Source of the DNA: Dehalococcoidia bacterium
Lineage (GTDB): Bacteria > Chloroflexota > Dehalococcoidia > SZUA-161 > SpSt-899
Length of the DNA: 26,772 nucleotides
NCBI GenBank assembly: GCA_023271515.1
Contig: JALPXQ010000008.1
Location: 1 to 26,772, forward strand
Direction: 5' to 3'
Shown here: positions 1 through 20,233 of the stretch, one piece after another
How positions within the stretch are numbered: position 1 is the first letter of the stretch
Layout: each line of letters opens with the position of its first letter
Made by a program: the position numbers and the translations under genes
The notes under the pieces: model-generated
The model's input: the letters and a program-made list of their open reading frames with translations, nothing else
Told to the model about the DNA's origin: nothing
The model's database searches: none

Positions 1-476
1 AGCACTCGGTACTCGGTCGGGTGGCGGTGATTGGGGGAGGCAATACGGCTGTTGACTGCGCTCGGACGGCCAGGCGCCTTGGAGGGGAGGAGGTGAGGAT
101 CATCTACCGTCGCTCCCGGGCCGAGATGCCGGCCTTGAGCGAAGAGGTAACTGCGGTGGAGGAGGAAGGGATAGGGATAGATTTTCTGACGGCACCGGTG
201 CGATTTCTCTCTGAAGGGGGAAGGCTTACGGGGATGGAGTGCATCAGGATGAAGCTCGGGGAGCCGGATGCCAGTGGCCGGGCCCGTCCGGTCCCCATTG
301 AGGGGTCGGAGTTCAGGATGGGTGTGGATACGGTGATAGCTGCTCTGGGACAGGTGCCGGAGACCGGATTCGTCCGGGAACTCGGGATATCACTGGGGAA
401 GACGGGCACGATAGAGACTGATCCCCGTACCGGGGCGACGAGCATCGAAGGGGTATTTGCCGGGGGGACGTGGTGA
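1..476 (+). CDS. NAD(P)H-binding pyridine nucleotide-disulfide oxidoreductase domain (GltD/SudA-like), 5'-partial. It runs off the window start and forms the N-terminal module of an HdrA-like fusion. The reading frame breaks in a G6 run at 462-467.
   Basis: Motifs VAVIGGGNTAVDCARTARRLG and, after the shift, GDVVTGPAFAIDAIAAGKRAA are typical of GltD-like oxidoreductases. There is no stop upstream of position 21 in frame. This ORF ends at TGA 477-479 only because of the frame change. Confidence 0.7.
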   Translation, partial: HSVLGRVAVIGGGNTAVDCARTARRLGGEEVRIIYRRSRAEMPALSEEVTAVEEEGIGIDFLTAPVRFLSEGGRLTGMECIRMKLGEPDASGRARPVPIEGSEFRMGVDTVIAALGQVPETGFVRELGISLGKTGTIETDPRTGATSIEGVFAGGTW

Positions 477-1849
477 CTGGACCTGCCTTTGCCATCGATG
501 CCATCGCTGCGGGGAAGAGGGCGGCGCGTTCGATAGGCCGCTATCTGAATGGCGAGCCGATGGAGGTTGAGGAAGAGGAGGGCAAGCCGGAGAGGCTCTC
601 CGAGGAGGAGGTCAAGTCATTAAAGGAACAGTTTCCAGCGGAGAAGCGGGTGGAGATGGGGGAGGAACCGGTAAAAGAGAGGGTTGCTGACTTCCGAGAG
701 GTGGTCCTGGGGTATACTGAGTTGGAGGCAGTTGGGGAAGCTTCACGGTGTCTTGCAGGGCAGATAGAGGGGTGCATCGAGTGCCGGGAGTGCAAGAGGC
801 GGTGTGATGCTGGGGCGATCAATTATGAGATGAAGGATGAAACTATCCAGGTGGAGGTGGGGAACATCATCCTGGCCACTGGTTACGATCAGTTCGATCC
901 CTCGGTTATCCCGGAGTACGGATATGGAAGGTATGAGAACGTTATCACCGGGTTGGAATTTGAGCGGCTCTCAAATGCTGCCGGGCCGACGGCGGGGCAG
1001 ATACTGCTGAAGAATGGCCGGCCACCCCGGAGTGTAGCTATTATTCACTGTGTGGGCAGCCGGGATAAAAACTTTCACCAGTACTGCTCCCGGGTTTGCT
1101 GTATGTATGCTTTGAAATTTGCGCATCTGATCAGGGAGAAGACCGACGCCGAGGTATATCAGATGTACATCGACATGCGATGCTTTGGGGAGGGATATGA
1201 GGAATTTTACGAGCGTGTGGGGACCGAGGACGGGGTGAACTTTATCCGGGGGAAGGCGTCGCGGGTAACCGACCAGGCTTTGAACGAGGAGGAGGAAGGG
1301 AAGCTCATCGTCTGCGTGGAAGATACGCTGCTGGGCAATTTCATGCGGGTGCCGGTGGAGATGGTCATCCTCTGCACTGCGCTGGAGCCGAGGGCCAATG
1401 CGGAGGAGGTAGCCCGGCTCTTCTCCATCGGGCAGAGAGCGGATGGATTCTTCCTGGAGAGGCATGTCAAGCTTGCCCCAATAGCGACCATGACCGAGGG
1501 GATGTTCATTGCCGGGTGCTGCGGAGGCCCGCGGGACATCCCGGACACGGTGGCTCAAGCTAAGGCGGCCGCTTCCGATGTGTTGAGTCTGCTGGCGCGG
1601 GGCAAGGTAGGGATCGAGCCTATTGTTGCCTCGGTGGACGAGGAGGTCTGCGCTGGCTGCGGTCTGTGTGAGAAGATATGCTCCTATAGTGCGCCCTCGA
1701 TTGACAGGCTTCGGAGAGTGACGGTGGTCAACAAGGCTTTATGTAAGGGTTGCGGTGCCTGTGCCGTCACCTGCCCTTCAGGGGCGATGAGCTTAAGCCA
1801 TTTCACTCATCGCCAGATACTGGAGGAAGTGGAGGCCTTGGTCTATTAG
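470..1849 (+). CDS. hdrA: Heterodisulfide reductase subunit A-like (HdrA) portion. It contains the inserted ferredoxin domain, the remainder of the FAD domain and a C-terminal 2x[4Fe-4S] domain. It is the continuation of the upstream GltD-like ORF.
   Basis: CIECRECKRRC, ILATGYDQFDP, CVGSRD, YCSRVCCMYALKFAHLI, the C-terminal CAGCGLCEKIC...CKGCGACAVTCP cysteine clusters and FIAGCCGGPRDIP all match HdrA. The N-terminal 25 aa of this ORF (VVTGPAFAIDAIAAGKRAA) belong to the GltD-like domain of the upstream ORF. Confidence 0.8.
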   Translation: MVTGPAFAIDAIAAGKRAARSIGRYLNGEPMEVEEEEGKPERLSEEEVKSLKEQFPAEKRVEMGEEPVKERVADFREVVLGYTELEAVGEASRCLAGQIEGCIECRECKRRCDAGAINYEMKDETIQVEVGNIILATGYDQFDPSVIPEYGYGRYENVITGLEFERLSNAAGPTAGQILLKNGRPPRSVAIIHCVGSRDKNFHQYCSRVCCMYALKFAHLIREKTDAEVYQMYIDMRCFGEGYEEFYERVGTEDGVNFIRGKASRVTDQALNEEEEGKLIVCVEDTLLGNFMRVPVEMVILCTALEPRANAEEVARLFSIGQRADGFFLERHVKLAPIATMTEGMFIAGCCGGPRDIPDTVAQAKAAASDVLSLLARGKVGIEPIVASVDEEVCAGCGLCEKICSYSAPSIDRLRRVTVVNKALCKGCGACAVTCPSGAMSLSHFTHRQILEEVEALVY

Positions 1850-1918
1850 CCCCTAGAAGTGCCTCTGTGGTGGATAGCCACAATTTTGGGTCCGGCTTGT
1901 CCGGGATAGGAGGATAAA

Positions 1919-2689
1919 ATGGAGTATCGGGAAATAATCCTGCTGAAGCAGGGCGAAATGGCCAGGATCACCATCAACCGACCCCCGGTTAACGTGATGA
2001 CCTTGAACACCATAGCCGAGCTGAACCAGGCACTAGGGGGATTGAGGGAAGATCCCGAGGTCAAGGTGGTGATCATCCGGGGAAGCGGGGAGCGGGCCTT
2101 CTCCGCCGGCGTGGAGGTGGCCGACCATCTGGGCGAGAAGTTACCCTGGATGTTGGAGGAGTTTGGCCGGCTGTTTAAGTCGCTGAGGAATGTAGACAAA
2201 CCGATTGTAGCAGTGGTAAACGGCGTCGCTTTGGGAGGCGGTTGCGAGCTGGTGGCCGGGTGCGATATGGCTATCGCCTCGGACAAAGCTAAATTCGGTC
2301 AGCCGGAGATAAAGTAGGGTGTGAACCCTCCGCCGGCCAGCGTGCTTTTCCCCAAGATCATAGGGATGAAAAAGGCCCTGGAGTTGATCCTCACTGGCGA
2401 TTCCATAGATGCGTGGGAGGCGCAGAGGATAGGTCTGGTGAACAAAGTGGTCCCCCACGAAGAATTGGATCAGGCTGCGGAGGAATTCGCCAACCGACTT
2501 CTGGAGAAAAGCGGATACATACTGAAGTTGAGCCGGGAAGCCTTCTACAAGGTTAGCGAGATAAGCGACTATGAGAAGGCCCTTGACTTTATGAACTGCC
2601 GGTCGCGTAGGATCATGGAATCTGAGGACGCCGTCGAGGGACTGACCTCTTTCATCGAAAAGCGCAAGCCGGTCTGGAAAAACCGGTGA
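1919..2689 (+). pseudogene. Enoyl-CoA hydratase/isomerase (crotonase) family protein, interrupted by an in-frame TAG at 2315-2317 and split into 132 aa and 122 aa ORFs.
   Basis: The N-terminal part has the crotonase fold motifs (INRPPVNVMT, VIIRGSGERAFSAGVEV, VNGVALGGGCELVAGCDMAIA, KFGQPEIK). The C-terminal part continues in the same frame (KALELILTGD...). There is a Shine-Dalgarno site AGGAGGA upstream of ATG 1919. The TAG sits where the conserved Leu of FGQPEI-L-G is expected. Confidence 0.65.
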
Positions 2690-3806
2690 TGGCAAGTATA
2701 ATAGACGAACTGGAGCCCATCATTAATCCCCGAAGCATCGCCGTGATAGGAGCCTCAGATAATCCCGCTAAGCTGGGCTATCACTGCATGAAGAGCCTGA
2801 AAGAGAGCGGGCTTCAGTCCATATATCCCATAAATCCGCGCTCTTCGGAGATTTGGGGATTTCCGGCCTATTCCTCGCTGAGAGAGATAGATCAGGAAAT
2901 CGACCTGGCTATCGTGATTGTGCCGGCCTCTGCGGTTCCTTCAGCAATAGAGGATTGTGCCCGGAAGGGGATAAAAGGCATTGTCCTTATGACTGGTGGA
3001 TTCAGGGAAGCGGAAGATCTGGCGGGCTCCAGGATGAAATAGGTTTGCTGGCAAACAAGAGTAGAATCAGGGTGATCGGTTCCAACGCATTCGGTCCATC
3101 TAAATGCCTCCTTACCCCGGAATTCCTTGCTACTTGAGGGTAAGCCTTATAAGTCAAAGTGGCGAGATATGCCACCCTCCTTGCTGATGGAATCGGAGAA
3201 AGTAATCGGCTTTTCCAAGATCGTGGACCTAGGCAACCGATGCAAATTTTCCCAACATGCTGGAGTACCTGGCGGTGGACCTGGAGACCAGGGTGATCCT
3301 GATGTATCTCGAGGGGATAGATGATGCCCGCAGGCTTATCGAGATTGCTCGGTGAGTGGCGCCCCAAAAGCCCATAGTAGCCTTCAAGTCAGGAAAGATG
3401 ACCACTGCGGACAGAGCGGCTTATTCTCATACCGGTTCCCTGGCGGGAAAGCATAAGGTCTATCTCGCCGCTTTCAGGCAGGCCGGGATCCTGTTGGCAA
3501 GCGATTTCGAGGAATTGCTGGATATCTGACCCGAACGTTGATGCCCTCTTGTTTCTCTCTGCCTATGCCTCAGCCAACGAGCCCGTAATTAGAGCGCTCG
3601 CTGCAGTGCTGAGGGAGGAGATCGAGGCTCGCCGGAAGCCGATCCTCACCTGCTTCCCGACACCACTGCGAATCTGGGAGGAAAGGGTCGAGCTGGAGAA
3701 GAGCGGCATTCCGGTTTATGCTACGCCGGAGAGGGCGGCTAGATCTCTGGCAGGTTTGGTCTGCTACGGAGATATCCCGGCTTTGGCGCTATTCACGAAA
3801 ACTTGA
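2686..3806 (+). pseudogene. ADP-forming acetyl-CoA synthetase (acetate--CoA ligase) alpha subunit, heavily degraded. It has at least 4 to 5 frameshifts, an in-frame TGA at 3353-3355 and an apparent internal deletion of about 250 nt.
   Basis: An N-terminal CoA-binding domain is intact in ORF 2686-3042 (SIAVIGASDNPAKLGY...IVPASAVPSAIEDCARKGIKGIVLMTGGF). Homology then continues across three frames: LQDEIGLLANKSRIRVIGSN, HLNASLP, ISQSGEIC, GIGFSKIVDLGN, LEYLAVDLETRVILMYLEGIDDARRLIEIAR-TGA-VAPQKPIVAFKSGKMTTADRAAYSHTGSLAG. The C-terminal tail is in ORF 3549-3806. Total length is about 1.1 kb against about 1.4 kb expected. Confidence 0.7.
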
Positions 3807-4872
3807 ACCTCCCATATTTTTCCACCATTTTTTGGTCAATGGAAGGTCCCGTCTTGTGGATCACCTCCACTAAGTCTCTCATTTCCACATCCCTTGCAAT
3901 GCCGGTCTGGATATTCTCTCTAAAGGGGATCAGCGAGGCTTTAAGGCAGATCTGCCTTATGTCCGCGCCGCTATGACCCTCGGTCATCTGTGCCAGGTTG
4001 TCGAAATCAATATCCTCTGCCAGCGGCTTTCCCTGGAGATTCAATTCAAAAATCTTTTTCCTCGCCTGAGAATCAGGGAGAGGAACATAGATAGTCTCGT
4101 CAAATCTTCCCGGTCTAAGGGCAGCATGGTCAATGCTCCATGGCTCGTTGGTTGCCCCGATGAAGAGGAGGTTCTCATTTTTCGACTCCATCCCCTCCAT
4201 CTCCGCCAAAATCTGAGGAACAACCCGTTGCATCACCGTAGACCCGGAATCCTTCCTCTTTGGAATCAGTGCTTCAACCTCGTCAATAAAAATCACCGCT
4301 CTCTTCTGATTCCTCGCCGAAGAAAACAGCTTCGCTATATTCTGCTCACTCTCCCCGACCCACTTGCTCATAATTTCGCTCGGCTTTATGCTGAAGAATA
4401 CCGCATCCACTTCATTGGCAACCGCCTTTGCGATGTAAGTCTTGCCTGTGCCAGGGGGACCGTAGAGCAAGATTCCTCCCCCGGATCTGATCCCAAACCT
4501 CTTCGCCTCTTCAGGATATAGAAAAGGATAGATTATCTTGTTCTTGATCTCCTCTTTGATATTCTCCAGTCCTGCCACGTCGTCGAAGGTTACGGCAGGT
4601 CGTTCCTGCAAGATGAATTCTGCACCTTTTCCCCTTCCCGCAGCAGCCTCCTTTTCCTTAAGAGTGATAGACTTTGCCTTCTCCAGGAGTTTCTGGGCGT
4701 TTTCAACCCTTATCAGCTTCACCCTCCCCTGCGATTCGGAAGACGCATTAAAGAGTTGTCTGCTCGCCTGCAGGTAATAGTCTCTGGCTTTTCGCAACTC
4801 GCTTTGCGCTTCCGCCTTCATTGCCTCGGCGATATATTCTTCGGCTTTTTGAAGAAATACGTCAATGCTCAT
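3793..4872 (-). CDS. vps4: MIT-domain AAA+ ATPase, Vps4/CdvC-like (copy 1).
   Basis: It has an N-terminal three-helix MIT-like region. It has Walker A GPPGTGKT, Walker B IFIDEVE, arginine finger RPGRFDE and a Vps4-type C-terminal helix. Its start overlaps the stop of the upstream ESCRT-III-like gene. Confidence 0.85.
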   Translation of the reverse strand: MSIDVFLQKAEEYIAEAMKAEAQSELRKARDYYLQASRQLFNASSESQGRVKLIRVENAQKLLEKAKSITLKEKEAAAGRGKGAEFILQERPAVTFDDVAGLENIKEEIKNKIIYPFLYPEEAKRFGIRSGGGILLYGPPGTGKTYIAKAVANEVDAVFFSIKPSEIMSKWVGESEQNIAKLFSSARNQKRAVIFIDEVEALIPKRKDSGSTVMQRVVPQILAEMEGMESKNENLLFIGATNEPWSIDHAALRPGRFDETIYVPLPDSQARKKIFELNLQGKPLAEDIDFDNLAQMTEGHSGADIRQICLKASLIPFRENIQTGIARDVEMRDLVEVIHKTGPSIDQKMVEKYGRFKFS

Positions 4873-4875
4873 CGC

Positions 4876-5475
4876 CTACCCCTTCCGCATCATGTCCTCG
4901 ACTTCCTTGATGCCCCTGGAAATCCTCTCATCCAGGCCCTTTTCCTCAGTCTCTGCCTCCCCTTCCATTGTTTTTACAATTTCGTTGATGTCTCTATCAG
5001 AGAAACCTTCGGCACTCAAGATACCCTCGCTGGCCATGTCTAAAGTAGTGGACAACGCCTCGTCGATGCCCTCTGCCTGTGCCATCGCCTTCTCAAATTC
5101 CACCTGCATGCCGGCGATCTTTTCTACATCTGGGCCTTCGGTAATGGACTCGCTTATGTCCTTAGCAAAGGTTACAAAATCCCCGGAGATCTTGACCATC
5201 TCCCGTTGAAGTCTGGCCTCGTCCATCAGCAGGAGCATCCGCTGTCCCTTTCTTATCCGTTCCTGCAAGACCAGATATTTGGCAGCCTGCCTCTTCAAAA
5301 ACTTCTCTTCATTTAGTCTAGCCGCCTGCCTTCCCTGATCGTATATCGTCTTTTGCAGGTCCATCAGCTTCGAGATGTAGCCTTTAACCCTTGCTTTCGC
5401 CTTCCTGTACCTTATCTCCCTCTCGATCTCCTTCTCTTCCCTTGATTTTCCCTTCAACTTTTTCAATATGCCCAT
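4876..5475 (-). CDS. ESCRT-III/Snf7-like protein (copy 1). It is an all-helical protein of about 200 aa with a basic N-terminus and an acidic C-terminal tail.
   Basis: The N-terminus is MGILKKLKGKSREEK..., the sequence is predicted coiled coil, and the C-terminus is acidic (EGEAETEEKGLDERISRGIKEVEDMM, MIM-like). It is translationally coupled to the Vps4-like gene. There is a GGAG Shine-Dalgarno site 7 nt upstream of ATG 5475. Confidence 0.6.
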   Translation of the reverse strand: MGILKKLKGKSREEKEIEREIRYRKAKARVKGYISKLMDLQKTIYDQGRQAARLNEEKFLKRQAAKYLVLQERIRKGQRMLLLMDEARLQREMVKISGDFVTFAKDISESITEGPDVEKIAGMQVEFEKAMAQAEGIDEALSTTLDMASEGILSAEGFSDRDINEIVKTMEGEAETEEKGLDERISRGIKEVEDMMRKG

Positions 5476-5492
5476 TCTTTCACTCCTTTGAC

Positions 5493-5542
5493 GGGTTTAC
5501 GGTTCACGGTTCTGCATAGTCTAGAGTCTAGAGTCTAGAGTC
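5493..5542. promoter_or_regulatory. Upstream region of the ESCRT-III-like copy 1 gene. It carries a partial GGTTCACGGTTC motif followed by a (AGTCTAG)x3 heptad array, which equals three overlapping palindromic TCTAGA sites spaced 7 bp apart.
   Basis: The sequence is gggtttacggttcacggttctgcat agtctag agtctag agtctag agtc. It lies 20 to 70 nt upstream of ATG 5475 on the minus strand. Confidence 0.4.
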
Positions 5543-5561
5543 CCCCGCTCCACCCCTACCT

Positions 5562-6299
5562 TCAACCTTCAGCCTTCAGCCTATCCACCTGAGTAGCTAG
5601 GATTACAGTTATATTGTCCCTTCCGTCGGTCTCTTTCGCAGAGTTTATGAGCTTCTCGCAGGCTTCATCGAGGTCTTTTGAACTTATTATGATCCGTCTT
5701 ATTTCTTCACCCCGTAAGGAATCTGTCAATCCATCAGAGCACAACAACAGATATTGACCACAAATCCGGATCTCGTAGAGGTCAGGTTTTATATCGGCAT
5801 CCGTTCCCATCACCCTGGTAATGATATTCTTTTCCGGATGATCAAAGGCCTCCTCTTCTGAGATAATACCTCTATCCACCAGTTCTTGAACGAAGGAATG
5901 GTCCTTGGTCTGCTGCTTTATCTCCTCTCCTATCAGATAAGCCCTGCTGTCGCCTATATTTGCGATCACACATCTTTCTTCTTCAATCAAGGCAGCCACC
6001 AGCGTTGTGCCCATATTACTATAGTCTGGATTTTCCCGGGCTAAACTGTATATCTCCCTATTTGTCTTCTCAAAAGCCTGCTGAAGCAGCATCCTGAAGT
6101 CAGTAATCCCCTCGCTAAATCCTTTGTTCACCGCCTCTTCCAGCTCTATCACTGCCAGCCCACTGGCAATCTCGCCGGCGCTGTGCCCGCCCAGACCGTT
6201 GGCAACGGCAAGGAGGTAAATGTCGCCGAAGCGCGTTACCGCAAGGCTATCCTCGTTATTTGCTCTCTTCCCGCTGTCAGTAAGAGATGCTATCTTCAT
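5562..6299 (-). CDS. PP2C-family (PPM) Ser/Thr protein phosphatase.
   Basis: AVANGLGGHSAGEIAS, GTTLVAALI, ANIGDSRAY and LLCSDGLTD are the conserved PPM metal-binding motifs. Its start overlaps the kinase stop by 4 nt. Confidence 0.9.
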   Translation of the reverse strand: MKIASLTDSGKRANNEDSLAVTRFGDIYLLAVANGLGGHSAGEIASGLAVIELEEAVNKGFSEGITDFRMLLQQAFEKTNREIYSLARENPDYSNMGTTLVAALIEEERCVIANIGDSRAYLIGEEIKQQTKDHSFVQELVDRGIISEEEAFDHPEKNIITRVMGTDADIKPDLYEIRICGQYLLLCSDGLTDSLRGEEIRRIIISSKDLDEACEKLINSAKETDGRDNITVILATQVDRLKAEG

Positions 6300-8548
6300 C
6301 CTTCTGTCCTCGCTTTGCGGATAATTCTATCCATATCGTTTAATCTACGGGGTTCTAATGTTGGATCACGATGCTTAATGCAATGATTAAGGACACCGAT
6401 TTGCTGGTCGATCAAATCCTGTGTCTCACTGGATTTCACCTGGGTTTTTAAGGAATTCAGGTAATCGATACATTTGTTCAGCGCACTCAAGCGCGTCTCA
6501 CGATGTTCCGAGCTGCTATATGCCTGTCGTAAGAGCATATCCGACATCTCGCAATAGAGCGTTATTCTCTCCAGTCGTTCTATGGTTATCTTCACCTTTT
6601 GTTTGTGTTCTATTTCCAGAACGTCTGCCAAGTGATTATGGAGCTCTTCTATGCTCTGGTAGCGCCTCTCCTTTTCCTTCTCCAGACAGCGCATGATTAC
6701 AGGTTCGACGAATTTAGCTTCCTGGTTAATGCTTGAGGGTAAGGGAGGATCGTGCTTCTTTATTTTCTCCATTATGGCAGATTCATCGGCGGCTTCAAAG
6801 GGAGGCTTGCCGGTTACCAGCTCATAGAATATCTGACCGAGCTGGAATATGTCGGTTCTTCCATCTACCTTCCCTCCGCTTATCTGCTCCGGCGTGGCAT
6901 AGAGGGTAGTGTATCCTCTGGCTTGATCATCTGACTGCTTTGAAGCCCGTATCATCTTTGCCAGCCCCCAATCCACGATTTTCGGCTCCTTATTACCATC
7001 AAGCATGATATTGCCAGGCTTCAGGTCGAGGTGAAATACAGGTCGCGGTCTTCCATGAGCATATCTTAAGCCATCTGCTATCTTGAAGATCAGATGACCC
7101 GCTTTTCTCGGATCAAGCGGTATCAAATCCTCAATCGAGCCAGCCAGAAGCTCCATCTCGATATATGGCCTGGGATAAGAGCTATAGTCGTATATCGTGG
7201 CTATGTTCTTGTGATCGAGTTCCTTCCAGATTTGTATTTCGTCTATAAAGCTCTTGGCGGTCTTTTTATCATGGTACCTGGCGATCTTTATGGCCACCAT
7301 GGCACTGTCCTTCTTCCGCTGTGCGCGGTACACCCAGGAACTTCCACCCTCGCCGACGTATTTAGGTTGATGATAGTATTCATGGAGCTCCTCCGGAAAG
7401 GCGAACATCGGTTGGCCTTTTCTTATGCCAGGTCCAACTGCGGGTTCCAATGTTATATCCTCAACCTTTATTGGCTTTCGTACCTCGTCGCCTTTTGCGA
7501 CAGCGCTCCTTGCGCGGACCAGAGTATCGGTGCACAACCTTATATTTGCTGTGCAGGCATCAGTTGACTTTTCGATCCTTGTCTTTTCCTCTTCCAGACC
7601 GTGTTCGGCAGCAAGCTCACGAATGCCGTCGAAGTGTGTCTGAGCATTCCTGTATTGGTCTCTTGCTTTGAGGTATTCTCCCTTGTTGAACCACTTCTCG
7701 GCATCCTCGATTAGCCCGTTCCCGATTTCAATCTTTCCCTCCACCAAGCCTCTGTATGCCGTTGTTTTCAATTGGTTGTAGGTTGCGTTATCCGAGGAGA
7801 ACGATTCCAGGTACTTTATCACTTCTGAGAAGGCATTCTCCTTTTCCTTGCCTTTTTCCTTATTGGCCTGCTCGATTAACTTATCTCCCTTGTGCAGGAG
7901 GCATGCCTCGATGCTAACCTCCATGTTTGCTACTGCTCGATTGATCGTTGGCTCGTCCTCAAACCCGAATTTGCCTGCAACCCCAGCGCCTTTTGCATAC
8001 GTCTCTCTCGCTGACCGGAATCCTTCTCTGGCAGCATCGAAATCTCCTGCCTCAAACATTCTTTTCGCCTCGTTCACGGTCTTGTTTGCCTCATCAACGA
8101 GTGCAGCCATCTCTTTCCGGGCTCTGTTTACCGCAGCAGTCTTTATATCTTTCTCGATGCTTCCCATAGAGGGTTTAAGAGCCTCAACTATCTCCCCCTC
8201 GTTCCTTTCGCTCGCCAACTGCACCACACGGGTGTATTCTTCGAGAGCCCTTTCCCAGAGCGTTATGGCTTCTGAGTAATCTTCTCTCTGGTATGCCTCG
8301 CTGCCATCGTCGGCTATCTTTTTCGCTCTATCCAGAAGATATTCGGTAGTGGGTCTAGCGGCCAGTTGGGCCTTCTTGGTCAGCTCCAGCGCTCTTGCGA
8401 ACTCCTTCTTCTTCACCGATTCCGCCGCTTCCTTGAGGAGGCTCCTTGCCTCATCCAGGTTGGCGCCTATATGGTGCTGATTTATCAGACCTCTAGCAAC
8501 CTCCACTTCCTTGTGCAGCCCTTCGAGTTCTTTCACAATACTGCCCAT
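6296..8548 (-). CDS. Hanks-type Ser/Thr protein kinase with an N-terminal helical-repeat region of about 380 aa and a C-terminal tail of about 100 aa.
   Basis: The kinase domain spans about 6600-7400. Motifs are GEGGSSWVY, VAIK, HLDLKPGNIM, DWGLAK (a DFG variant) and YATPEQ. The start is ATG 8548 or TTG 8551, with GGAGG 8 nt upstream. Confidence 0.9.
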   Translation of the reverse strand: MGSIVKELEGLHKEVEVARGLINQHHIGANLDEARSLLKEAAESVKKKEFARALELTKKAQLAARPTTEYLLDRAKKIADDGSEAYQREDYSEAITLWERALEEYTRVVQLASERNEGEIVEALKPSMGSIEKDIKTAAVNRARKEMAALVDEANKTVNEAKRMFEAGDFDAAREGFRSARETYAKGAGVAGKFGFEDEPTINRAVANMEVSIEACLLHKGDKLIEQANKEKGKEKENAFSEVIKYLESFSSDNATYNQLKTTAYRGLVEGKIEIGNGLIEDAEKWFNKGEYLKARDQYRNAQTHFDGIRELAAEHGLEEEKTRIEKSTDACTANIRLCTDTLVRARSAVAKGDEVRKPIKVEDITLEPAVGPGIRKGQPMFAFPEELHEYYHQPKYVGEGGSSWVYRAQRKKDSAMVAIKIARYHDKKTAKSFIDEIQIWKELDHKNIATIYDYSSYPRPYIEMELLAGSIEDLIPLDPRKAGHLIFKIADGLRYAHGRPRPVFHLDLKPGNIMLDGNKEPKIVDWGLAKMIRASKQSDDQARGYTTLYATPEQISGGKVDGRTDIFQLGQIFYELVTGKPPFEAADESAIMEKIKKHDPPLPSSINQEAKFVEPVIMRCLEKEKERRYQSIEELHNHLADVLEIEHKQKVKITIERLERITLYCEMSDMLLRQAYSSSEHRETRLSALNKCIDYLNSLKTQVKSSETQDLIDQQIGVLNHCIKHRDPTLEPRRLNDMDRIIRKARTEG

Positions 8549-8553
8549 CAATT

Positions 8554-9735
8554 CTACCTCCTGCCTTGATTTACAACCTCATCTATCATCTCAAGAATCG
8601 CTCTCTTTTTCCTTTCAATCTCCTCCCTCTCGGCCTTCTTCTTTCGCCCGTAGGAAAAAATGCCTATTGACAGGATCACGGCAAAAGCAAGTGTCCCCAC
8701 GTAGATGTGATTGTTATTGATCGTCGGTGCAAAGTCTCTATAGTTGACCACGCCGTCTTGATCCAGGTCCATGGCAAGAGACTTTGCCCTTGTTGCCATC
8801 TCAAATGCCGTTTTATAATCTGCATCCTCAAATGCCTCCTCACTACCTGAAAGCAAAGCCTCGGCCATGGCTACATTGAATCCTCGTAGCTCTGCTACTC
8901 TAATTGCCTCCCTTGCCTGGTCGATCCCTTCAATGGCCAGTTCACCGTCTCTTTTAATCGTTTCTGCCGTAGTCTTTGCCTGCTCAGCAAGGGTTTTGGC
9001 GCGTCCAAAATGCCCTCCTGCAAGCGCCCTCTCGGCCTGCCGAAGAAGACCCTCAGCCTCTGTCATATCGAGCCCTTCGGCTCTCCCCCTTTGAATCGCT
9101 TTGGCGATCTCTTCAATGATAGCGGCAATTAGTGCTTCTTCCGATTCAACCTTTATCAGCCAGAGATCACTCTCACCTGCGCCAAAAGACATTGTCCAAC
9201 CGGTTACGATAAATCCGCCGTCATCGGTCTGCTGGACTGAGAGGCCCGAATCACTTTTTGCGCCACCGAATGTGCGGCTCCACTCCTTATTCCCCGCAGA
9301 ATCGGTCTTTATCAGCCAGAGATCCGACTCACCTGCGCCGAAAGACCCTGTCGTTCCGGTTACGATAAACCCGCCGTCAACCGTCTGCTGGACTGAGCAG
9401 CCCCAATCCCTGGCTGTGCCACCGAACGTGCGGCTCCACTGCTTATTACCCGCAGGATCGGTCTTTATCAGCCAGAGATCCGACTCACCTGCGCCAAAAG
9501 AGCGTGTCCAACCGGTTATGATAAATCCGCCGTCAGTTGTCTGCTGGACTGAGAGGCCCCGATCAGATTCTGCGCCACCAAATGTGCGGCTCCACTCCTT
9601 TGCCGGCGCTCGCTCTGTGGTCTCGTCAGCCACGGCCACGCCTACGAGAGGGAAAGGGAACGCCGTTACCAGCGCGGCAACCATAAGCACCACTGCCACC
9701 CCAAACAGGATTGGTGTCAGACTTTTCATGATCAA
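8554..9735 (-). CDS. Type-I membrane surface protein. It has a signal peptide, 3 tandem blade-like repeats of about 47 aa, a helical repeat, a DxDGVVN motif, a C-terminal TM helix and a conserved basic cytoplasmic tail.
   Basis: There is an N-terminal hydrophobic signal. There are three copies of [42 protein letters not shown]. The C-terminus is [55 protein letters not shown]. Confidence 0.75.
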
Positions 9736-9769
9736 AACCTCCCTGAAGATTCTTAGCGCCTCCCCCTAC

Positions 9770-10012
9770 TCATTTCCCCATTTCCCTCTCAATCCCTCTC
9801 TCCCAAATGTGCTTTGCCTCTTCAATGCTTTCATCACTGATTTTAACACTCTTCCAGATTCCTCGAAGAGAGATCACCTCCCCCTCTGGTGGAGTTTTCT
9901 GGGGCTCCCCATGAAGGATTTGCATTCTTACTCGCTCGTTCTCTCTTAAGCCAACTTTGTCCAGAAGTTTGATCACCCCTTTTTGATAGATGCCCTCTAT
10001 GACCTCGGCCAT
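9770..10012 (-). CDS. Small DUF104-like protein (archaeal antitoxin-like), orphan.
   Basis: The N-terminus MAEVIEGIYQKGVIKLLDKVGLRENERVRMQI resembles archaeal DUF104 antitoxin-type proteins. There is a GGAGGT Shine-Dalgarno site 7 nt upstream of the ATG. There is no PIN or other toxin partner adjacent. Confidence 0.45.
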   Translation of the reverse strand: MAEVIEGIYQKGVIKLLDKVGLRENERVRMQILHGEPQKTPPEGEVISLRGIWKSVKISDESIEEAKHIWERGIEREMGK

Positions 10013-10042
10013 TTTCGTTACCTCCGCTAGTTTTTGCCCACA

Positions 10043-11653
10043 CTACCCCCTGCCCTCATTTACAACCTCATCTATCATCTCAAGAATCGCTCTCTCTTTC
10101 CTTTCAATCTCCTCCTTCTCGGCCTTCTTCCGTCGGCGGCGAAAAGAAACGCCTGCTGATGCAGAGATAAGGCCCAGGACAAGAAGAAATGCTCCCATGT
10201 AGATATGATTGTTGTTGATCGTCGGTGCAAAGTCTTCATGGTTGACCACGCCGTCCCGATCCACATCTAAGGCAAGCGATTTTGCGGTTGCGGCCAGTTC
10301 TACCGCTCTTTCATACTCTCTATCATCAAATGCGCTCTCAGCCTGAGAAAGCGAGCTTTCGGCCTCCACAACATCGAAACCTTTTGCCCTTTCCTGAGAG
10401 ATTACCTGCCTTGCTTCTTCGATAGAGCTTCTTGCCAGTCTCAGTTCTCTGGTAATTTCTTCCGCTTTTGCCTTTGCCTGCCGGGCAAGGCTTATGGCTC
10501 CTCCAAAATCCCCTCCTGCAAGTGTCTCCTCAGCCTGCGAAAGTACACCCTCCGCCTCGGTCATATCGAGTCGTTTGTCTATCCCCTCCTCGATTGCATC
10601 CCTGGCCTGGTTGATCGCATCAAGCGCTGCCTGAGCTTCCCCTTTTACCTCTCGTGCGGTAACCTCTGCCTGCTGGGCAAGGCTCATGGCTTCTCCATAA
10701 TCCCCTCCTGCAAGCGCCCTCTCGGCCTGCCGCAGGAGATCCTCAGCCTCAGCCATATCGAGCCCTTCGGCTCTGCCTGTTGTTATTGCCTCCTTTGCTT
10801 GCTCGATCTGCTCCAGTGCCGCTGCCCTTCTAATCCCTTCTACCTTAGCCTCTGCCTGCTGGGCAAGGCTTATGGCTTGTTCAAAATCCCCTCCTGCAAG
10901 TGCCCGCTCGGCCTGCCGAAGGAGACGCTCGGCGTCTGTCATATCAAGCCCTTCGGCTGTTCTGGCTTCGATTACTTCTCTTGCTTTGTCGATCTCTTCA
11001 ATCGCTGCTTCAGCATCCTCTTTAATGCCTTCTGCTTTAGTCTTTGCCTGCTCAGCAAGGCTTACGGCTCTTTCAAAATCGTCTGCTGCAAGCGCCCTCT
11101 CGGCCTGCCGGAGGATATCCTCAGCTTCAGCCATGTTGAGCCCTTCGGCTCTCCCGGCTTCGATTGCCTCCCTTGCCTGGGCGATGGCATTGATGGCAAA
11201 TTGAGGCATGGGGATTTCAACAAGGTTATGGTGGATGATCTGCGCGGCATGCTGGACTATTATCCGCGGCCGCACCCTATCGGCGAGGATAGAAACCTCG
11301 CCCGGGACTTGAATAAGGTTATGGTGGATGATCTGCGCGGCATGCTGGATTATAATGCGGGGCATCACCTCACCTGCGAGGCTCACCAGGGTCTCCGCAG
11401 GCTCCACAAGGTCAAATTCTTGCACGCTGTCGGCGTCTTCCACGACAATCTCAGGGCCGCTTGCGGCATGCACCCTGGAATTTACCGCCAGATATGCCGA
11501 TACGGCCAGCACCAACGCGGCCAGAATCAAGACCATCAGGGGGATTCTCCCCCTGAAACCCCCTGAAGAGCGGTCATCCTTAGGATTTTTAAAGGAGCTT
11601 CGCTCCTTTATTCTCCAGGGCGGTTTACACTGGTTTATCCTTATCCTGAACAA
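10043..11653 (-). CDS. Type-I membrane surface protein, paralog of 8554-9735. It has a signal anchor, a 2x 31-aa tandem repeat and 5 helical repeats of about 37 aa. It ends with a DxDGVVN motif, a TM helix and the conserved tail.
   Basis: The C-terminus [72 protein letters not shown] is nearly identical to the upstream paralog at the DNA level. It contains repeats of the form [32 protein letters not shown]. The true start may be the internal Met near 11536 (MVLILAALVLAVSAYLA). Confidence 0.7.
   Translation of the reverse strand: MFRIRINQCKPPWRIKERSSFKNPKDDRSSGGFRGRIPLMVLILAALVLAVSAYLAVNSRVHAASGPEIVVEDADSVQEFDLVEPAETLVSLAGEVMPRIIIQHAAQIIHHNLIQVPGEVSILADRVRPRIIVQHAAQIIHHNLVEIPMPQFAINAIAQAREAIEAGRAEGLNMAEAEDILRQAERALAADDFERAVSLAEQAKTKAEGIKEDAEAAIEEIDKAREVIEARTAEGLDMTDAERLLRQAERALAGGDFEQAISLAQQAEAKVEGIRRAAALEQIEQAKEAITTGRAEGLDMAEAEDLLRQAERALAGGDYGEAMSLAQQAEVTAREVKGEAQAALDAINQARDAIEEGIDKRLDMTEAEGVLSQAEETLAGGDFGGAISLARQAKAKAEEITRELRLARSSIEEARQVISQERAKGFDVVEAESSLSQAESAFDDREYERAVELAATAKSLALDVDRDGVVNHEDFAPTINNNHIYMGAFLLVLGLISASAGVSFRRRRKKAEKEEIERKERAILEMIDEVVNEGRG
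11222..11407. repeat. 93-bp tandem direct repeat (2 copies) within surface protein gene 10043-11653.
   Basis: aaggttatggtggatgatctgcgcggcatgctgga occurs at 11222 and 11315. It encodes the duplicated 31-aa segment PRIIIQHAAQIIHHNL. Confidence 0.8.
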
Positions 11654-11814
11654 AGGTTCACCTCCCGTCGCGAGCGCATGCCCGAGATGGCAATCATGCC
11701 TTGTCCATCAGTCTAAAGGGTGGAGCAAAGACCAGGTTCATCCCTCTCGGTAGACAAGGACGATAGCAAATGATCCTGCCCACACCCTCGCGATTTGGTG
11801 GAACACATCTGGCC

Positions 11815-12513: not shown

Positions 12514-12595
12514 GGTTTACCTCCCTAAAATAGAGATTTTGCTTGGTCTGATCAGACATGCTTTTACACGATGCCCCTCCTCGTATCCATCGCCG

Positions 12596-15752: not shown

Positions 15753-17009
15753 TCAGCCTACCTTATATTCCCTGGCAGCCTCTATCAACTCCCTGAACAT
15801 CTCACCCTCTCCCGTTCCGCTTAATTCTTTGACTGCTTTTGGATACCAAGAAGCAAGCACAGTCTTCTTCCCTTTCAACACCTGGTCGAAGTCTTCCATC
15901 GTTATCTCTCTCCTGGGGGTCATCTCTTTGATCCTCTCCCCCAGGGGAATCATTGCCGCCTTCTCACAGATATCTGCGATCTCAGCGCTGGCATATCCCT
16001 CGGTGATCTCTGCCAGTCTCTGCAGACTGACTGATCTGGAGACAGGCTTATTCTTCAGATTTATCTCCAGGATTTTTTTGCGAGCCTCAATATCGGGATG
16101 GGGGAGGAAAACCGTTGTATCGAACCTCCCTGACCTTCTCAAAGCAACATCAACAGCCCAGGGGCGATTGGTAGCTGCAAGAACAAGATAGCGTTTAGTT
16201 GTGCCTTTCGCTTCCAGACCATCCATCTGTGATAACAGCTCGCTTACCAGGCTTCTCTCGTGCCCCTCCATTGACCCGGAGCGCTCCCCTGCCAGGGAGT
16301 CGAACTCATCGAAGAATAACATTGCCTTTTCATAGCTTCTGGCAACGTTGAAGATTTCCTTGATGTTTTTCTCGCTTTCTCCTACGTATTTGTCCTTGAT
16401 ATCGCTGCCTTTTAGACTGACGAAGGCTGCATCGGATTCGGCCGCCGCCGCCGCCGCGAGCATCGTTTTTCCGCATCCCGGAGGACCGTATAAGAGAATC
16501 CCCCCACCCGGTTTAACCCCAAAGTACTCGTACTCCTCCGGGTACTTGAAGGGATAAACAATTGCCTCCTTGATGTTCTCCTTTACTCTGGCTAAACCGG
16601 CGATATCGCTGAATCTTATCTTCGGTTTTTCCGCCAGGATCAGACCTTTAACCCTCTCCCCTGTCTTTTCTTTCTCTATCCTCCCCCCGGGTGTCTTTTT
16701 AACCCCTTCCTCCGGTGGTATCATGCCATCCGTATATACTTTAACAGTCCCTTCTTTGAGCCCCTCGGCGATCTCCCTGAATTTCTTGGATCTGTCCAGC
16801 AGCTCTTTTCGCTTATCCCTCGGTGACATATCTGCAAGATGCTCCAGGAATTTAGCGCACTTTAAGTACTCCACACTGGCTTTCGCCATGCTGCCTTCAT
16901 CATAGTGCCTCCTGGCCAGATTAAGGGATTTCTTATACTCGGCTTGGACCGCATCTCTCAGCTCCATACTTATTCCCTCCATAGTCGGGTTATCGGGTTC
17001 AGGGTTCAC
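15753..17009 (-). CDS. vps4: MIT-domain AAA+ ATPase, Vps4/CdvC-like (copy 2). The likely true start is ATG 16967 (MELRD...).
   Basis: It has an MIT-like N-terminus. It has Walker A GPPGCGKT, Walker B LFFDEFD, RSGRFDT and a Vps4-like C-terminus. The ORF-track start 17009 is GTG. An internal ATG at 16967 is preceded by GGAGGGA with a 6 nt spacer. Confidence 0.85.
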   Translation of the reverse strand: MNPEPDNPTMEGISMELRDAVQAEYKKSLNLARRHYDEGSMAKASVEYLKCAKFLEHLADMSPRDKRKELLDRSKKFREIAEGLKEGTVKVYTDGMIPPEEGVKKTPGGRIEKEKTGERVKGLILAEKPKIRFSDIAGLARVKENIKEAIVYPFKYPEEYEYFGVKPGGGILLYGPPGCGKTMLAAAAAAESDAAFVSLKGSDIKDKYVGESEKNIKEIFNVARSYEKAMLFFDEFDSLAGERSGSMEGHERSLVSELLSQMDGLEAKGTTKRYLVLAATNRPWAVDVALRRSGRFDTTVFLPHPDIEARKKILEINLKNKPVSRSVSLQRLAEITEGYASAEIADICEKAAMIPLGERIKEMTPRREITMEDFDQVLKGKKTVLASWYPKAVKELSGTGEGEMFRELIEAAREYKVG

Positions 17010-17106: not shown

Positions 17107-17113
17107 TAAGCAG

Positions 17114-17743
17114 CTACAGCGTCTCTAACTCTTCTTCCTCCCTCTCTCTGGCAACTCTCTCTTTTAGCAGCCTCTCAGCTATCTGCTCAGCTTCGGCTTC
17201 ATTTGCCGTTTCCAAGACGTCCATGTATCTCTTTATCTCTTCGTCCTCCTTGGGTTTGGCAAGTAAGCCCAATTCTCCATCTAACATCTCAAGTAAGTTG
17301 TCCACATTCCCTTTCGCTATCTCATTCTGCAGGTTCACTTGTGCCAGAAACTTTTCCAGCTTACTCGCCGGTAGTTTGGTCAGCTTGGTCATTATGCCCT
17401 TATGTGCCAGCAACTCTTGGCTCTCCTGGGTGAAAACCAGATTGTCCACTACTCGAAGTTGGTCGTTGATGTTCTTCAGATACTTGTCGTCGAGTGCCAT
17501 CTCGCGCTCCAAACGCAGCATCTGCCTTGCAGTGCTCCTTTTCTTCGCCTCGCTGCTTTCTCCCGAGCCTTGTTTTATTAGCGCCCTGAACTGCTGAGAC
17601 GCCTTGTCAACCTTTGCTATCCTCAGCTTCTCTTCCCTTTCCAGCCTGATCCTTTCGGCTATCAGGTCATCCTTCTTCAGCTTCTCGAAGGGGTTTCCCT
17701 TTATTTTGTCCAGAATTCCCATTGTGTTTGCCTCCTTTTTCAT
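17114..17743 (-). CDS. ESCRT-III/Snf7-like protein (copy 2). The likely true start is ATG 17722 (MGILDKIKG...).
   Basis: An internal start MGILDKIKG mirrors MGILKKLKG of copy 1 and has an AAGGAGG Shine-Dalgarno site 8 nt upstream. It is all helical with an acidic C-terminus (AREREEEELETL). It lies directly upstream of Vps4-like copy 2. Confidence 0.6.
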   Translation of the reverse strand: MKKEANTMGILDKIKGNPFEKLKKDDLIAERIRLEREEKLRIAKVDKASQQFRALIKQGSGESSEAKKRSTARQMLRLEREMALDDKYLKNINDQLRVVDNLVFTQESQELLAHKGIMTKLTKLPASKLEKFLAQVNLQNEIAKGNVDNLLEMLDGELGLLAKPKEDEEIKRYMDVLETANEAEAEQIAERLLKERVAREREEEELETL

Positions 17744-19978: not shown

Positions 19979-19990
19979 TTCATAATCCCC

Positions 19991-20227: not shown

Positions 20228-20233
20228 CGTAAA

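Follow-up and report, generated by a model that had tools for sequence, protein, structure and literature searches.

Genes for kinases and phosphatases occur in archaeal ESCRT loci, an example being the order STK-Snf7-Vps4-PTC1-STK listed for Methanocaldococcus vulcanius (Makarova et al., 2024, Table S2; PMC10936438). In the archaeal 'Main'-clade and Halo_FHA loci, an ESCRT-III gene lies directly upstream of the gene for an MIT-AAA ATPase, a Hanks kinase and a PP2C phosphatase are encoded in the same co-directional cluster, and phosphorylation has been proposed to control the system (PMC10936438). The locus described here, which lies in a window of 26,772 nucleotides (the whole stretch of DNA analyzed), resembles these loci in all of these features and is read in the same way. 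It differs from them in its bacterial host and in its order, kinase–PP2C–ESCRT-III–ATPase with an ATGA overlap. The kinases of the 'Main' and Halo_FHA loci have a transmembrane (TM) segment and Ig-like repeats, whereas the kinase here (STKa) is soluble and has an N-terminal array of MIT-like units. The 'Main'-clade signatures arCOG09748 (C-terminal wH) and arCOG08177 (Cas2-like/DUF3568/TBP) were not detected in the island ORFs scanned, a scan that used Pfam models only. A kinase and a phosphatase beside ESCRT genes are thus already in the literature and ordinary on their own, although the earlier note on this DNA knew of no described prokaryotic ESCRT locus with them. What is new is the bacterial host, a soluble kinase with about four N-terminal MIT-like units, and a tail common to the neighboring membrane proteins.

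Other described systems share parts of this arrangement. The 'Meth_adaptin' loci (Methanosarcinales, e.g., Methanosalsum zhilinae; PMC10936438) also encode Zn-ribbon–SPFH–coiled-coil and Zn-ribbon proteins near a pair formed by a small helical protein and an AAA ATPase. Kinase and phosphatase are present here but not described in that clade (PMC10936438), and its ProX found no match among the scanned island ORFs. The crenarchaeal Cdv system (CdvA-CdvB-CdvC) likewise pairs an ESCRT-III protein with an MIT-AAA ATPase; unlike Cdv, the present locus has no CdvA, its ESCRT-III protein (E3a) has no wH extension, its ATPase scores far under the CdvC cut-off, and ESCRT-based division is not known in its host. 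In the abscission checkpoint, the human Ser/Thr kinase ULK3 (PDB 4wzx), which has tandem MIT domains, binds the ESCRT-III proteins IST1 and CHMP1/2 and phosphorylates them. The MIT array of ULK3 is C-terminal with two units, whereas that of STKa is N-terminal with about four; ULK3 has no dedicated phosphatase partner, and the two MIT–kinase fusions are very probably independent.

In bacteria, PspA and Vipp1 are the sole members of the ESCRT-III superfamily that are generally accepted. Some PspA loci have SPFH/Band-7 partners, PspA systems are without a Vps4-like ATPase (PMC7619361), and bacteria have no Vps4-like ATPases according to reviews. Unlike PspA and Vipp1, E3a belongs to a family whose profile matches eukaryotic and archaeal ESCRT-III. 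The bacterial Stk1/Stp1 pairs (PrkC/PrpC, PknB/PstP) are similar to the present pair as translationally coupled Hanks kinases and PP2C phosphatases. In contrast to them, STKa has neither a TM segment nor PASTA domains, and its gene precedes that of the phosphatase rather than following it.

The four genes and their products

The four same-strand genes claimed in the earlier note, for a kinase, a PP2C phosphatase, an ESCRT-III protein and an AAA ATPase in that order, were verified as ORFs on the minus strand, and its three junctions are borne out by the sequence: kinase and PP2C overlap by 4 nt in a common ATGA, 86 nt separate PP2C from the ESCRT-III gene, and 3 nt separate the latter from the ATPase gene (TAG gcg ATG). 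The 86-nt spacer (5476..5561, minus strand) contains heptamer tandem repeats (GACTCTA x3.5 and GAACCGT x2) and, 7 nt 5' of the E3a ATG, the ribosome-binding site AAGGAG. The heptamer copy number varies between sister single-cell genomes, giving PP2C/E3a spacers of about 70–114 nt. No terminator-like hairpin and no promoter-like site were found in the 86-nt spacer, and a scan of positions 3300–12700 for sigma-70 promoters and terminators yielded no more sites than shuffled sequence did. As a correction to the earlier note, the unit begins not with the kinase but upstream of it: the gene of a 393-aa membrane protein stops 2 nt before the kinase ORF, and same-strand genes run on upstream of that gene to 11653 with gaps of at most 86 nt.

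E3a (5475..4876, minus strand; 199 aa) is, on the evidence of sequence profiles, a genuine ESCRT-III protein of the Vps2/Vps24/CHMP1-3-like type, which upholds its earlier label of ESCRT-III-like. The sequence alone gave nothing in direct Pfam/NCBIfam searches or in single-profile PDB searches, with Snf7 reaching only E=0.14; the identification came only through a broader profile (A2) from an exhaustive HMM search, with 75 family representatives. Against the PDB, the family profile matches Vps24 over its full length (E=1.6e-8; profile 11-194 to chain 18-220), followed by CHMP2A (3e-6), CHMP3 (8e-6), CHMP1B (1e-5), Asgard ESCRT-IIIB (3e-5) and CdvB (5e-4), and a Snf7 chain is also among the matches. 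Pfam Snf7 is matched by 28 of the 75 family members (best E=1.4e-8). Conversely, none of 23 family members matched PspA_IM30 at E<=1, and no PspA/Vipp1 chain appeared among the PDB matches of the family profile (E<=10). In the AF2 model, a predicted hairpin (12-53/57-110) is followed by helices at 117-151 and 160-198, the ESCRT-III arrangement of an alpha1-alpha2 hairpin and the shorter helices alpha3-alpha5. The N-terminus is basic (MGILKKLKGKS), and the position of S11 beside it is occupied by Ser or Thr in all close family members (100%) and in 69% of the distant ones. The MIM1 consensus is (D/E)xxLxxRLxxL(K/R). The C-terminal helix of E3a, EKGLDERISRGIK (178-190), fits most of its positions and is a putative MIM1-like motif; this segment is conserved in the family and aligns to the Vps24 C-terminus.

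The AAA+ ATPase Vps4a (4872..3793, minus strand; 359 aa) has an N-terminal MIT-like region (7-69) and one AAA+ cassette that carries the Walker A/B motifs and an aromatic pore loop (Pfam AAA, E=1e-43, and AAA_lid_3; GPPGTGKT 138-145, SKWVGESE 169-176, FIDEVE 195-200, RPGRFD 253-258). Pfam MIT aligns to residues 7-69 over nearly its whole length (profile 1-64 of 66) at E=6e-4, which is under the gathering score, and MIT is the top Pfam family for the N-termini of all eight Vps4a orthologues (best E=2.2e-5). A PDB search with the single-sequence N-terminus returned no MIT domain; the profile of orthologue N-termini has as its best match 2mpk_A (E=0.006), a chain that bears the annotation chitin synthase 1 and is an MIT domain. 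These matches provide moderate support for an N-terminal MIT domain. The label Vps4-like holds for the architecture of MIT plus one AAA cassette but not for the AAA domain itself, whose closest PDB sequences are Cdc48/p97 D2. The 60 best PDB sequence matches of Vps4a are of p97/Cdc48/VAT/AFG2/NVL/Rix7 type with no Vps4 chain among them, Pfam Vps4_C finds no match in the protein, and the arginine-finger region RPGRFD is of Cdc48 D2/PAN type. The CdvC model NF041006 aligns to the full length with 258 bits, below its equivalog cut-off of 650, and the CDC48 model TIGR01243 aligns locally with 268 bits. With an ESCRT-III gene directly upstream, Vps4a has the gene context of criterion ii of Makarova et al. 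(2024).

The Ser/Thr kinase STKa (8551..6296, minus strand) has 751 aa when read from TTG; the likelier start is the ATG at 8548, 8 nt after GGAGG. It is a soluble protein with no TM segment and consists of about four MIT-like three-helix units (residues 1-356), a Hanks domain (393-640) and a helical C-terminal domain (641-751). The Hanks domain (Pkinase E=8e-43; 147 bits against a cut-off of 31.7) has intact catalytic motifs (Gly-rich loop, VAIK, HLD...N, DWG, TPE) and is of the non-RD type (HLD); with the PknB_PASTA model it reaches 177 bits, below the cut-off of 450. MIT domains are modules that normally bind ESCRT-III. The N-terminus of STKa has an MIT-like fold in a high-confidence predicted model, with the CdvC MIT domain (2w2u) as one of the top structural matches to its repeats; the three-helix bundle is a simple fold, and the model also scores high against de novo designed bundles and TPR proteins. 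This model was built on only 4 sequences, since a word-indexed search with the kinase N-terminus gave only 3 proteins.

The PP2C Ser/Thr phosphatase (6299..5562, minus strand; 245 aa; PP2C_2 E=4e-16), whose ATG lies in the ATGA overlap with the kinase stop, passes the NCBIfam Stp1/IreP model NF033484 (259 bits, cut-off 230). The window copy reads VANGLGG, with N34 (AAC, 6198-6200) replacing the metal-binding Asp of DGxGG, and may therefore be impaired. All 10 relatives compared (six copies from sister genomes and four orthologues from archaea or metagenomes) have D at this position, and N34 reflects either genuine variation or an error introduced by single-cell amplification or by sequencing.

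Conservation of the linkage and the wider island

The linkage is conserved in part of the relatives. Kinase and PP2C adjoin E3a orthologues in 6 of 12 informative non-sister archaeal or metagenomic loci: L007 (Hydrothermarchaeales), L009 (Methanoperedens), L010 (a Halobacteriota MAG) and the metagenomic L016, L018 and L019. Because the linkage is found again in these loci, it is more than chance; it spans distinct archaeal orders at only 31–37% kinase identity, and in L018 PP2C sits directly between Vps4b (the second ATPase of the island) and E3a. The remaining six loci are without kinase and PP2C, and the switch is therefore accessory. E3a lies upstream of the ATPase gene in L007, L008, L011, L014–L016, L018 and L019; in five of these loci the two genes are immediate neighbors.

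The island is larger than the four genes, which form its 3' end; it also encodes a second ATPase pair, another kinase and an SPFH protein. The earlier note had overlooked this second candidate pair and second kinase, as well as the upstream extension of the operon and the bacterial host. Directly upstream of STKa, the 393-aa membrane protein (9735..8554, minus strand) has a signal/TM segment, extracellular beta-propeller-like and helical repeats, a second TM segment and a 30-aa cytoplasmic tail; its homologues precede the kinase in the sister genomes and in L010. A 536-aa membrane protein (11653..10043, minus strand) has six DUF4398/NRBF2_MIT-like helical repeats (DUF4398 E=3e-15; NRBF2_MIT E=1e-6) between two TM segments. 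The helical repeats of both proteins were considered as cytoplasmic MIT domains and rejected as such; flanked by two TM segments in proteins with a positively charged N-terminus and C-terminal tail, they are probably extracytoplasmic. The two proteins share a short cytoplasmic tail (...ILEMIDEVV...), which may be a docking motif; the tail motif [ILV]x[DES]MI[DEK][DE] is found in membrane proteins encoded in the window and in archaeal loci.

Further upstream on the minus strand, E3b (17743..17114; 209 aa) and the AAA ATPase Vps4b (17009..15753; 418 aa; AAA E=5e-39) form a pair that adjoins E3a again in L009, L016, L017 and L018. E3b has only its N-terminus, MGILDKIKG, in common with E3a, and no similarity to ESCRT-III appeared in hhalign comparison with the E3a profiles or in a PDB profile search; as a second ESCRT-III it was reduced to a positional candidate. 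Beyond the pair, still on the minus strand, Pfam and its domain matches define a transglutaminase-core/CDC48_N protein (19978..18356), a Zn-ribbon–SPFH–coiled-coil protein (22048..20234; DZR/Zn_Ribbon_1 and Band_7 matches), a 386-aa Zn-ribbon protein (23297..22137), a coiled-coil protein (24871..23297) and the second kinase STKb (26732..25086). Homologues of the SPFH protein and STKb recur in the E3a loci L015, L016 and L018, the SPFH homologue of L015 at 64% identity.

The bacterial host and alternative explanations

The island resides in a bacterium of Dehalococcoidia SZUA-161/SpSt-899, the group in which the AH-958 genomes have been placed (PMC10570749). The host flank in the window (1..3806, plus strand) encodes, by Pfam, an HdrA-like Fe-S flavoprotein, a split enoyl-CoA hydratase and a CoA-binding/CoA-ligase remnant; a 459-aa flank protein has named best matches that are all bacterial, mostly Chloroflexota/Dehalococcoidia. 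The 3' end of Vps4a overlaps the CoA-ligase remnant convergently, and this overlap is identical in seven single-cell assemblies, the window and six others (L001–L006). A CoA-ligase gene beside Vps4a in the metagenomic L016 was considered as a shared flank and rejected as a coincidence at 31% identity. The 38-kb contig L001 has bacterial genes on both sides of the island, with DnaJ-MerR-ClpB at one end and, at the other, Mfd and tRNA genes that follow a perfect TTGACA-17-TATATT promoter, and its island is bordered by toxin–antitoxin-type genes (DUF433/DUF5615, AF2212-like). In L001 and L005, tRNA genes lie close to the island; they showed no sign of serving as integration sites, and no integrase was seen.

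We consider it probable that an archaeal-type ESCRT-III/Vps4-like membrane-remodeling module with its own kinase/phosphatase switch was gained by a Dehalococcoidia lineage via horizontal transfer. A different origin, in which archaeal DNA was misjoined to bacterial DNA by single-cell amplification or contamination and there is no bacterial ESCRT, would fit the nearest non-sister relatives of E3a and Vps4a, which are archaeal at 75% identity, as well as the incomplete AH-958 assemblies (52–66%; PMC10570749) and the broken flank genes of the window. It is nevertheless very unlikely, as a chance joint does not agree with an identical Vps4a/CoA-ligase overlap in seven assemblies or with bacterial genes on both sides of the island in one contig. 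The GC content of the island (0.49–0.50) is also shifted from that of the archaeal loci (0.37–0.48) towards that of the host flank (0.57), and an independent Dehalococcoidia MAG has the STKa N-terminus at about 90% identity. The kinase and phosphatase might instead be an ordinary Stk/Stp pair that lies upstream by accident, with a promoter in the spacer and independent regulation of ESCRT-III and ATPase. Kinase–phosphatase pairs are common in bacteria, 86 nt with variable heptamer repeats would suffice for a promoter, and half of the informative E3a loci have neither gene. This explanation appears improbable given the spacer without promoter-like or terminator-like sites, the linkage across distinct archaeal orders despite the low kinase identity, the PP2C of L018 flanked directly by Vps4b and E3a, and a non-catalytic kinase domain that resembles an ESCRT-III-binding module.

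The locus could also be a stress or anti-phage defense module in a variable genomic island, with the kinase as a sensor of infection or of damage to the envelope and with the ESCRT-III-like protein and the AAA ATPase as membrane effectors or repair machinery, PspA-like, rather than as a machine for sorting or budding. Island content does differ among closely related sister cells, toxin–antitoxin-type genes border it in L001, the neighboring membrane proteins have large extracytoplasmic sensor-like domains, and PADLOC models match the kinases (PD-T4-6, mad6) and AAA proteins (IetA, TRIP13). We think such a role unlikely: the PADLOC matches are to generic kinase and AAA domains only, and E3a, E3b, the SPFH protein and the membrane proteins have no match; in the PDB, the E3a profile finds ESCRT-III sensu stricto but no chain of PspA/Vipp1; and archaea have the same set of genes conserved, which is interpreted there as an ESCRT system. 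Variability of the island, together with a kinase cut down to its last 113 residues in L005, would also fit a transferred element that is decaying and serves no function in its bacterial host.

A putative phosphorylation switch

Returning to a transferred ESCRT-III/Vps4-like module with its own switch, the earlier proposal that reversible Ser/Thr phosphorylation is tied to such a machine is supported by the tight gene spacing, the conserved linkage and the MIT-like kinase N-terminus; its claim to novelty is not supported. From family knowledge and the features above, we infer binding partners, substrates and a cellular process. This process would not be division but the budding of vesicles, the sorting of proteins or the repair of membranes. 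E3a would polymerize on the cytoplasmic face of the membrane via its basic N-terminus, and the MIT domain of Vps4a would bind the MIM1-like helix at the E3a C-terminus and disassemble or remodel the polymer. STKa, soluble and carrying about four MIT-like units, might dock onto helical motifs of this kind, with the E3a C-terminus, the conserved tails of the membrane proteins encoded upstream, or both as candidate ligands. It could then phosphorylate E3a, the ATPase or those membrane proteins, and the translationally coupled PP2C would reverse this, so that polymer assembly, or the selection of cargo or site, could be switched on and off.

More tentatively, the free-living lineage SpSt-899 may keep a working archaeal-type ESCRT-III/Vps4-like machine, which would be the first in Bacteria. 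Its MIT-array kinase would be recruited to MIM-like helices, both those of ESCRT-III and those in the cytoplasmic tails of membrane proteins that act as sensors or cargo, so that the system would parallel in a prokaryote the checkpoint logic of ULK3 and ESCRT-III; we regard this fuller proposal as possible but doubtful. A bacterial copy that assembles reproducibly would provide a counter-example to the absence of Vps4-like ATPases from bacteria, with inter-domain gene transfer as the simplest explanation, and would allow one to ask what role a minimal ESCRT machine has in a bacterial cell. The MIT-array kinase offers a concrete, testable route by which phosphorylation may be targeted to a prokaryotic ESCRT-III, a connection that archaeal surveys infer from gene neighborhood only.

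Four-gene unit and its products

Four co-directional genes lie on the minus strand. Their transcription order, kinase, PP2C, 199-aa ORF and AAA ATPase, is the one that the earlier note had described. The kinase STKa (8551–6296, 751 aa) has a Pkinase domain at residues 393–640 (E = 8e-43), and the PP2C phosphatase (6299–5562, 245 aa) matches PP2C_2 (E = 4e-16) and NCBIfam Stp1/IreP (259 bits, cut-off 230). They are followed by E3a (5475–4876, 199 aa), which as a single sequence has no family match, and Vps4a (4872–3793, 359 aa), with AAA (E = 1e-43) and AAA_lid_3 matches. The junctions also read as claimed: ATGA is common to the kinase stop and PP2C start (4-nt overlap), 86 nt separate PP2C from the ESCRT-III gene, and the ESCRT-III/ATPase junction is TAG-gcg-ATG (3-nt gap). 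The start of STKa is probably the ATG at 8548, preceded by GGAGG. Inside the 86-nt spacer, AAGGAG stands 7 nt ahead of the E3a ATG, and a sequence scan of this spacer found no terminator-like hairpin. Only 2 nt separate the kinase ORF from the stop of the preceding gene, which codes for a 393-aa membrane protein. From 11653 down to 3793 genes are co-directional with all gaps ≤86 nt, so a longer unit exists and the kinase-to-ATPase genes form its 3′ end. The spacer (5476–5561) and its equivalents in six sister single-cell assemblies carry tandem heptamers, GACTCTA and GAACCGT, whose copies vary between cells (3.5–6.5 and 2–3; spacer length about 70–114 nt); one sister, L003, has a different, G-rich sequence.

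A word-indexed search returned 68 close E3a clusters, a few with precomputed Snf7 matches. Weak full-length Snf7 matches occur in 14 of 23 aligned family members, and the close-family profile had no match in the PDB. An exhaustive HMM search over 1.8 billion cluster representatives found 219 relatives at E ≤ 0.001. A broad profile built from 75 full-length representatives and run against the PDB matched yeast Vps24 end to end (E = 1.6e-8), CHMP2A (3e-6), CHMP3 (8e-6), CHMP1B (1e-5), Heimdallarchaeal ESCRT-IIIB (3e-5), CdvB (5e-4) and, more weakly, Snf7; no PspA or Vipp1 chain was matched. Pfam Snf7 is matched by 28 of the 75 representatives. Candidate phosphosites of E3a, judged from conservation, are S11, which adjoins the basic N-terminus and corresponds to Ser or Thr in every close relative and in 69% of the distant ones, and further conserved serines in the low-confidence alpha4–alpha5 linker.

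The N-terminal 70 residues of Vps4a cover the whole Pfam MIT profile (E = 6e-4). MIT is the top family for all eight orthologue N-termini compared (best E = 2e-5), and their profile has as its best PDB match 2mpk_A (chitin synthase 1, E = 0.006), which we take to be a MIT domain. The AAA cassette, with intact Walker motifs, pore loop SKWVGESE and arginine-finger region RPGRFD, is nearest by sequence to Cdc48/p97 D2; Vps4_C is absent, and the score against the CdvC equivalog model is 258 bits (cut-off 650). Vps4a is covered by the working definition that Makarova et al. apply, which asks for either a MIT domain or neighbouring ESCRT genes (PMC10936438), and does not pass a strict test for the Vps4 family. 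Having a MIT match and ESCRT neighbours but a Cdc48-D2-like AAA cassette, a low CdvC score and no Vps4_C, it is therefore best termed Vps4-like.

A second pair at 15753–17743, a 209-aa small helical protein (E3b) and an AAA ATPase (Vps4b), recurs beside E3a in archaeal loci. E3b starts with MGILDKIKG, as does E3a, and has no detectable similarity to ESCRT-III. The Vps4b orthologue of Methanoperedens (575 aa; L009, 5164–6891) has an additional C-terminal domain that by eye resembles DisA_N/diadenylate cyclase; if this reading is true, the ATPase would be tied to c-di-AMP signalling.

MIT-like array of the kinase and its possible ligands

Residues 1–356 of STKa are predicted to form twelve helices, or about four three-helix units (pLDDT 87.5, from only four sequences), each with the signature x(E/G)(D/E)(F/Y)xxAxxx(F/W/Y)xxA, a pattern that Vps4 MIT helices typically show as well. 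High scores for the array model are also obtained with TPR proteins and with designed three-helix bundles, which marks the fold as a simple one, yet MIT domains are strikingly enriched among its matches. The closest functional analogue of STKa is human ULK3, a kinase that binds and phosphorylates ESCRT-III by means of tandem MIT domains. A 652-aa metagenomic protein (P0191) joins an STKa-type N-terminal MIT-like array to a non-kinase C-terminus resembling a 432-aa protein of the Methanoperedens locus, which makes the array a mobile module.

Upstream, the 393-aa protein (8554–9735) has two TM segments around a large propeller-like extracytoplasmic part, and a 536-aa protein (10043–11653) has two around extracytoplasmic DUF4398-type helical repeats. 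Both have only about 30 cytoplasmic residues, as a C-terminal tail whose motif [ILV]x[DES]MI[DEK][DE] is shared with otherwise unrelated membrane proteins of L007 and L010. MIT domains may dock on this motif; we infer that the MIT units of kinase and ATPase would recognise the C-terminus of E3a as well as these tails. Between the two membrane-protein genes lies an 80-aa ORF (9770–10012) whose N-terminus (MAEVIEGIYQKGVIKLL) looks, by eye, like an AF2212/DUF104-type antitoxin; in the sister assembly L001, the island is likewise bordered by an AF2212-like gene.

Recurrence, host and state of the island

E3a-orthologue loci were gathered from species-representative genomes and metagenomes, and the window proteins were mapped onto them. 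The kinase/PP2C/ESCRT-III linkage was found in six: L007 from Hydrothermarchaeales (E3a 75% identical; STKa-like kinase, two small membrane proteins, PP2C, E3b-like, E3a, HEAT-like, Vps4a), L009 from Methanoperedens (E3b, Vps4b, membrane kinase with extracellular propeller, PP2C, E3a, second kinase), L010 from a Halobacteriota MAG (tail-bearing membrane protein, STKa-like kinase, PP2C with a 3-nt gap, E3a), L016 and L019 (STKa-PP2C, then E3a, farther along Vps4a) and L018 (Vps4b-PP2C-E3a-Vps4a, kinase 5 kb upstream). Both genes are missing in six other informative loci (L008, L011, L012, L014, L015 and L017), so the pair is a frequent but accessory part; that linkage is kept despite kinase identity of only 31–37% argues for function. 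The collected E3a loci also contain counterparts of the window's second pair, second kinase and SPFH protein; the 23-kb island as a whole is a single composite system that recurs. The products of its part at 18356–26732 are a transglutaminase-core/CDC48_N protein, one that combines Zn ribbon, SPFH and coiled coil, a further Zn-ribbon protein and a coiled-coil protein of 524 aa, along with the second Hanks kinase, in which one helical unit is joined to an Ig/CARDB-like domain. This upstream part resembles published Meth_adaptin ESCRT loci, which carry an SPFH-coiled-coil-Zn-ribbon protein (PMC10936438). A 1011-aa surface protein (12596–15631; CARDB, internal duplication, PKD, C-terminal TM segment), with a GC dip to 0.40 at 13001–14000, is reduced to its last 37 residues in L002, so island content is variable.

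The exact E3a protein is present on 14 contigs of single-cell genomes named 'Dehalococcoidia bacterium AH-958-...', a group, including GCA_023271155.1 (L002), placed in the Dehalococcoidia order SZUA-161, family SpSt-899 (Zehnle et al., 2023, PMC10570749). An assembly chimera is unlikely: the window and six other assemblies share one convergent arrangement, in which Vps4a overlaps a CoA-ligase gene by 14 nt and the enoyl-CoA hydratase and HdrA-like genes come next, and the 38-kb contig of L001 has the island between bacterial genes on both sides (Mfd, tRNA-Pro, tRNA-Met and a radical-SAM gene; CoA ligase, an HdrA-like gene, HIT, DnaJ, a MerR-family regulator and ClpB). The tRNA-Met gene encodes its CCA, and 10 nt ahead of it a perfect sigma-70 promoter (L001 562–602; TTGACA, 17 nt, TATATT) is direct evidence for a bacterial flank. 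Named relatives of the HdrA-like protein are all bacterial, mostly Chloroflexota, and the kinase N-terminus occurs at about 90% identity in an independent Dehalococcoidia MAG. When 185,579 species representatives were scanned with two peptide patterns, an insensitive method, the E3a family turned up only in two members of Dehalococcoidia and in seven archaea. With island GC3 (0.41–0.65) below that of host genes (0.65–0.70) and island GC (0.49) above that of archaeal loci (0.37–0.48), the composition, flanks and relatives are as expected of transferred, partly ameliorated archaeal DNA.

Such an element could be decaying. PP2C codon 34 (6198–6200) is AAC, giving N34 in place of the DGxGG metal-binding Asp kept in all ten relatives compared (six sister copies, four archaeal or metagenomic orthologues); N34 is either genuine, and then inactivating, or the product of an error in amplification or sequencing. 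L005 (AH-958-J08) has only the last 113 kinase residues (8813–9148), with upstream DNA unrelated to the island and intact PP2C, E3a and Vps4a. In the window flank, the enoyl-CoA hydratase (1919–2689) is broken at 2317/2321, leaving two ORFs, and the CoA ligase (2686–3806; 471 aa in sister genomes) is a 118-aa CoA-binding ORF plus fragments. These are signs of decay, some of which single-cell amplification could have introduced by error. A defence or stress island was also considered, but PADLOC yields only generic kinase and AAA matches. Kinase and PP2C were likewise considered as an unrelated Stk/Stp pair; the conserved linkage and the predicted MIT-like array support their functional coupling to ESCRT. 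The earlier suggestion of phosphorylation tied to the ESCRT machine stands to that extent, for an accessory pair.

Relation to archaeal ESCRT systems

The earlier note knew of no prokaryotic ESCRT locus with a kinase/PP2C pair. This novelty claim fails, since genes for a Ser/Thr kinase and a phosphatase are present in many 'Main'-clade and some Halo_FHA archaeal loci, for instance STK-Snf7-Vps4-PTC1-STK in Methanocaldococcus vulcanius, and in Thermococcus kinases and a PP2C fusion alongside Snf7 genes (Table S2), and phosphorylation was concluded to be key to such systems (Makarova et al., 2024, PMC10936438). Those kinases typically sit in the membrane and carry Ig-like repeats plus a PCI-like domain at the C-terminus; MIT domains fused to kinases are not described in the main text of that study, and its supplementary files have no entry for Methanoperedens or Hydrothermarchaeales (PMC10936438). 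A Vps4-like ATPase was apparently missing from bacteria in a 2025 review (PMC7619361), and our literature search found no paper tying ESCRT/Vps4 to Dehalococcoidia or Chloroflexota. The type of system is thus already described in archaea; new in this instance are the bacterial host, the soluble MIT-array kinase and the tail-bearing membrane partners.
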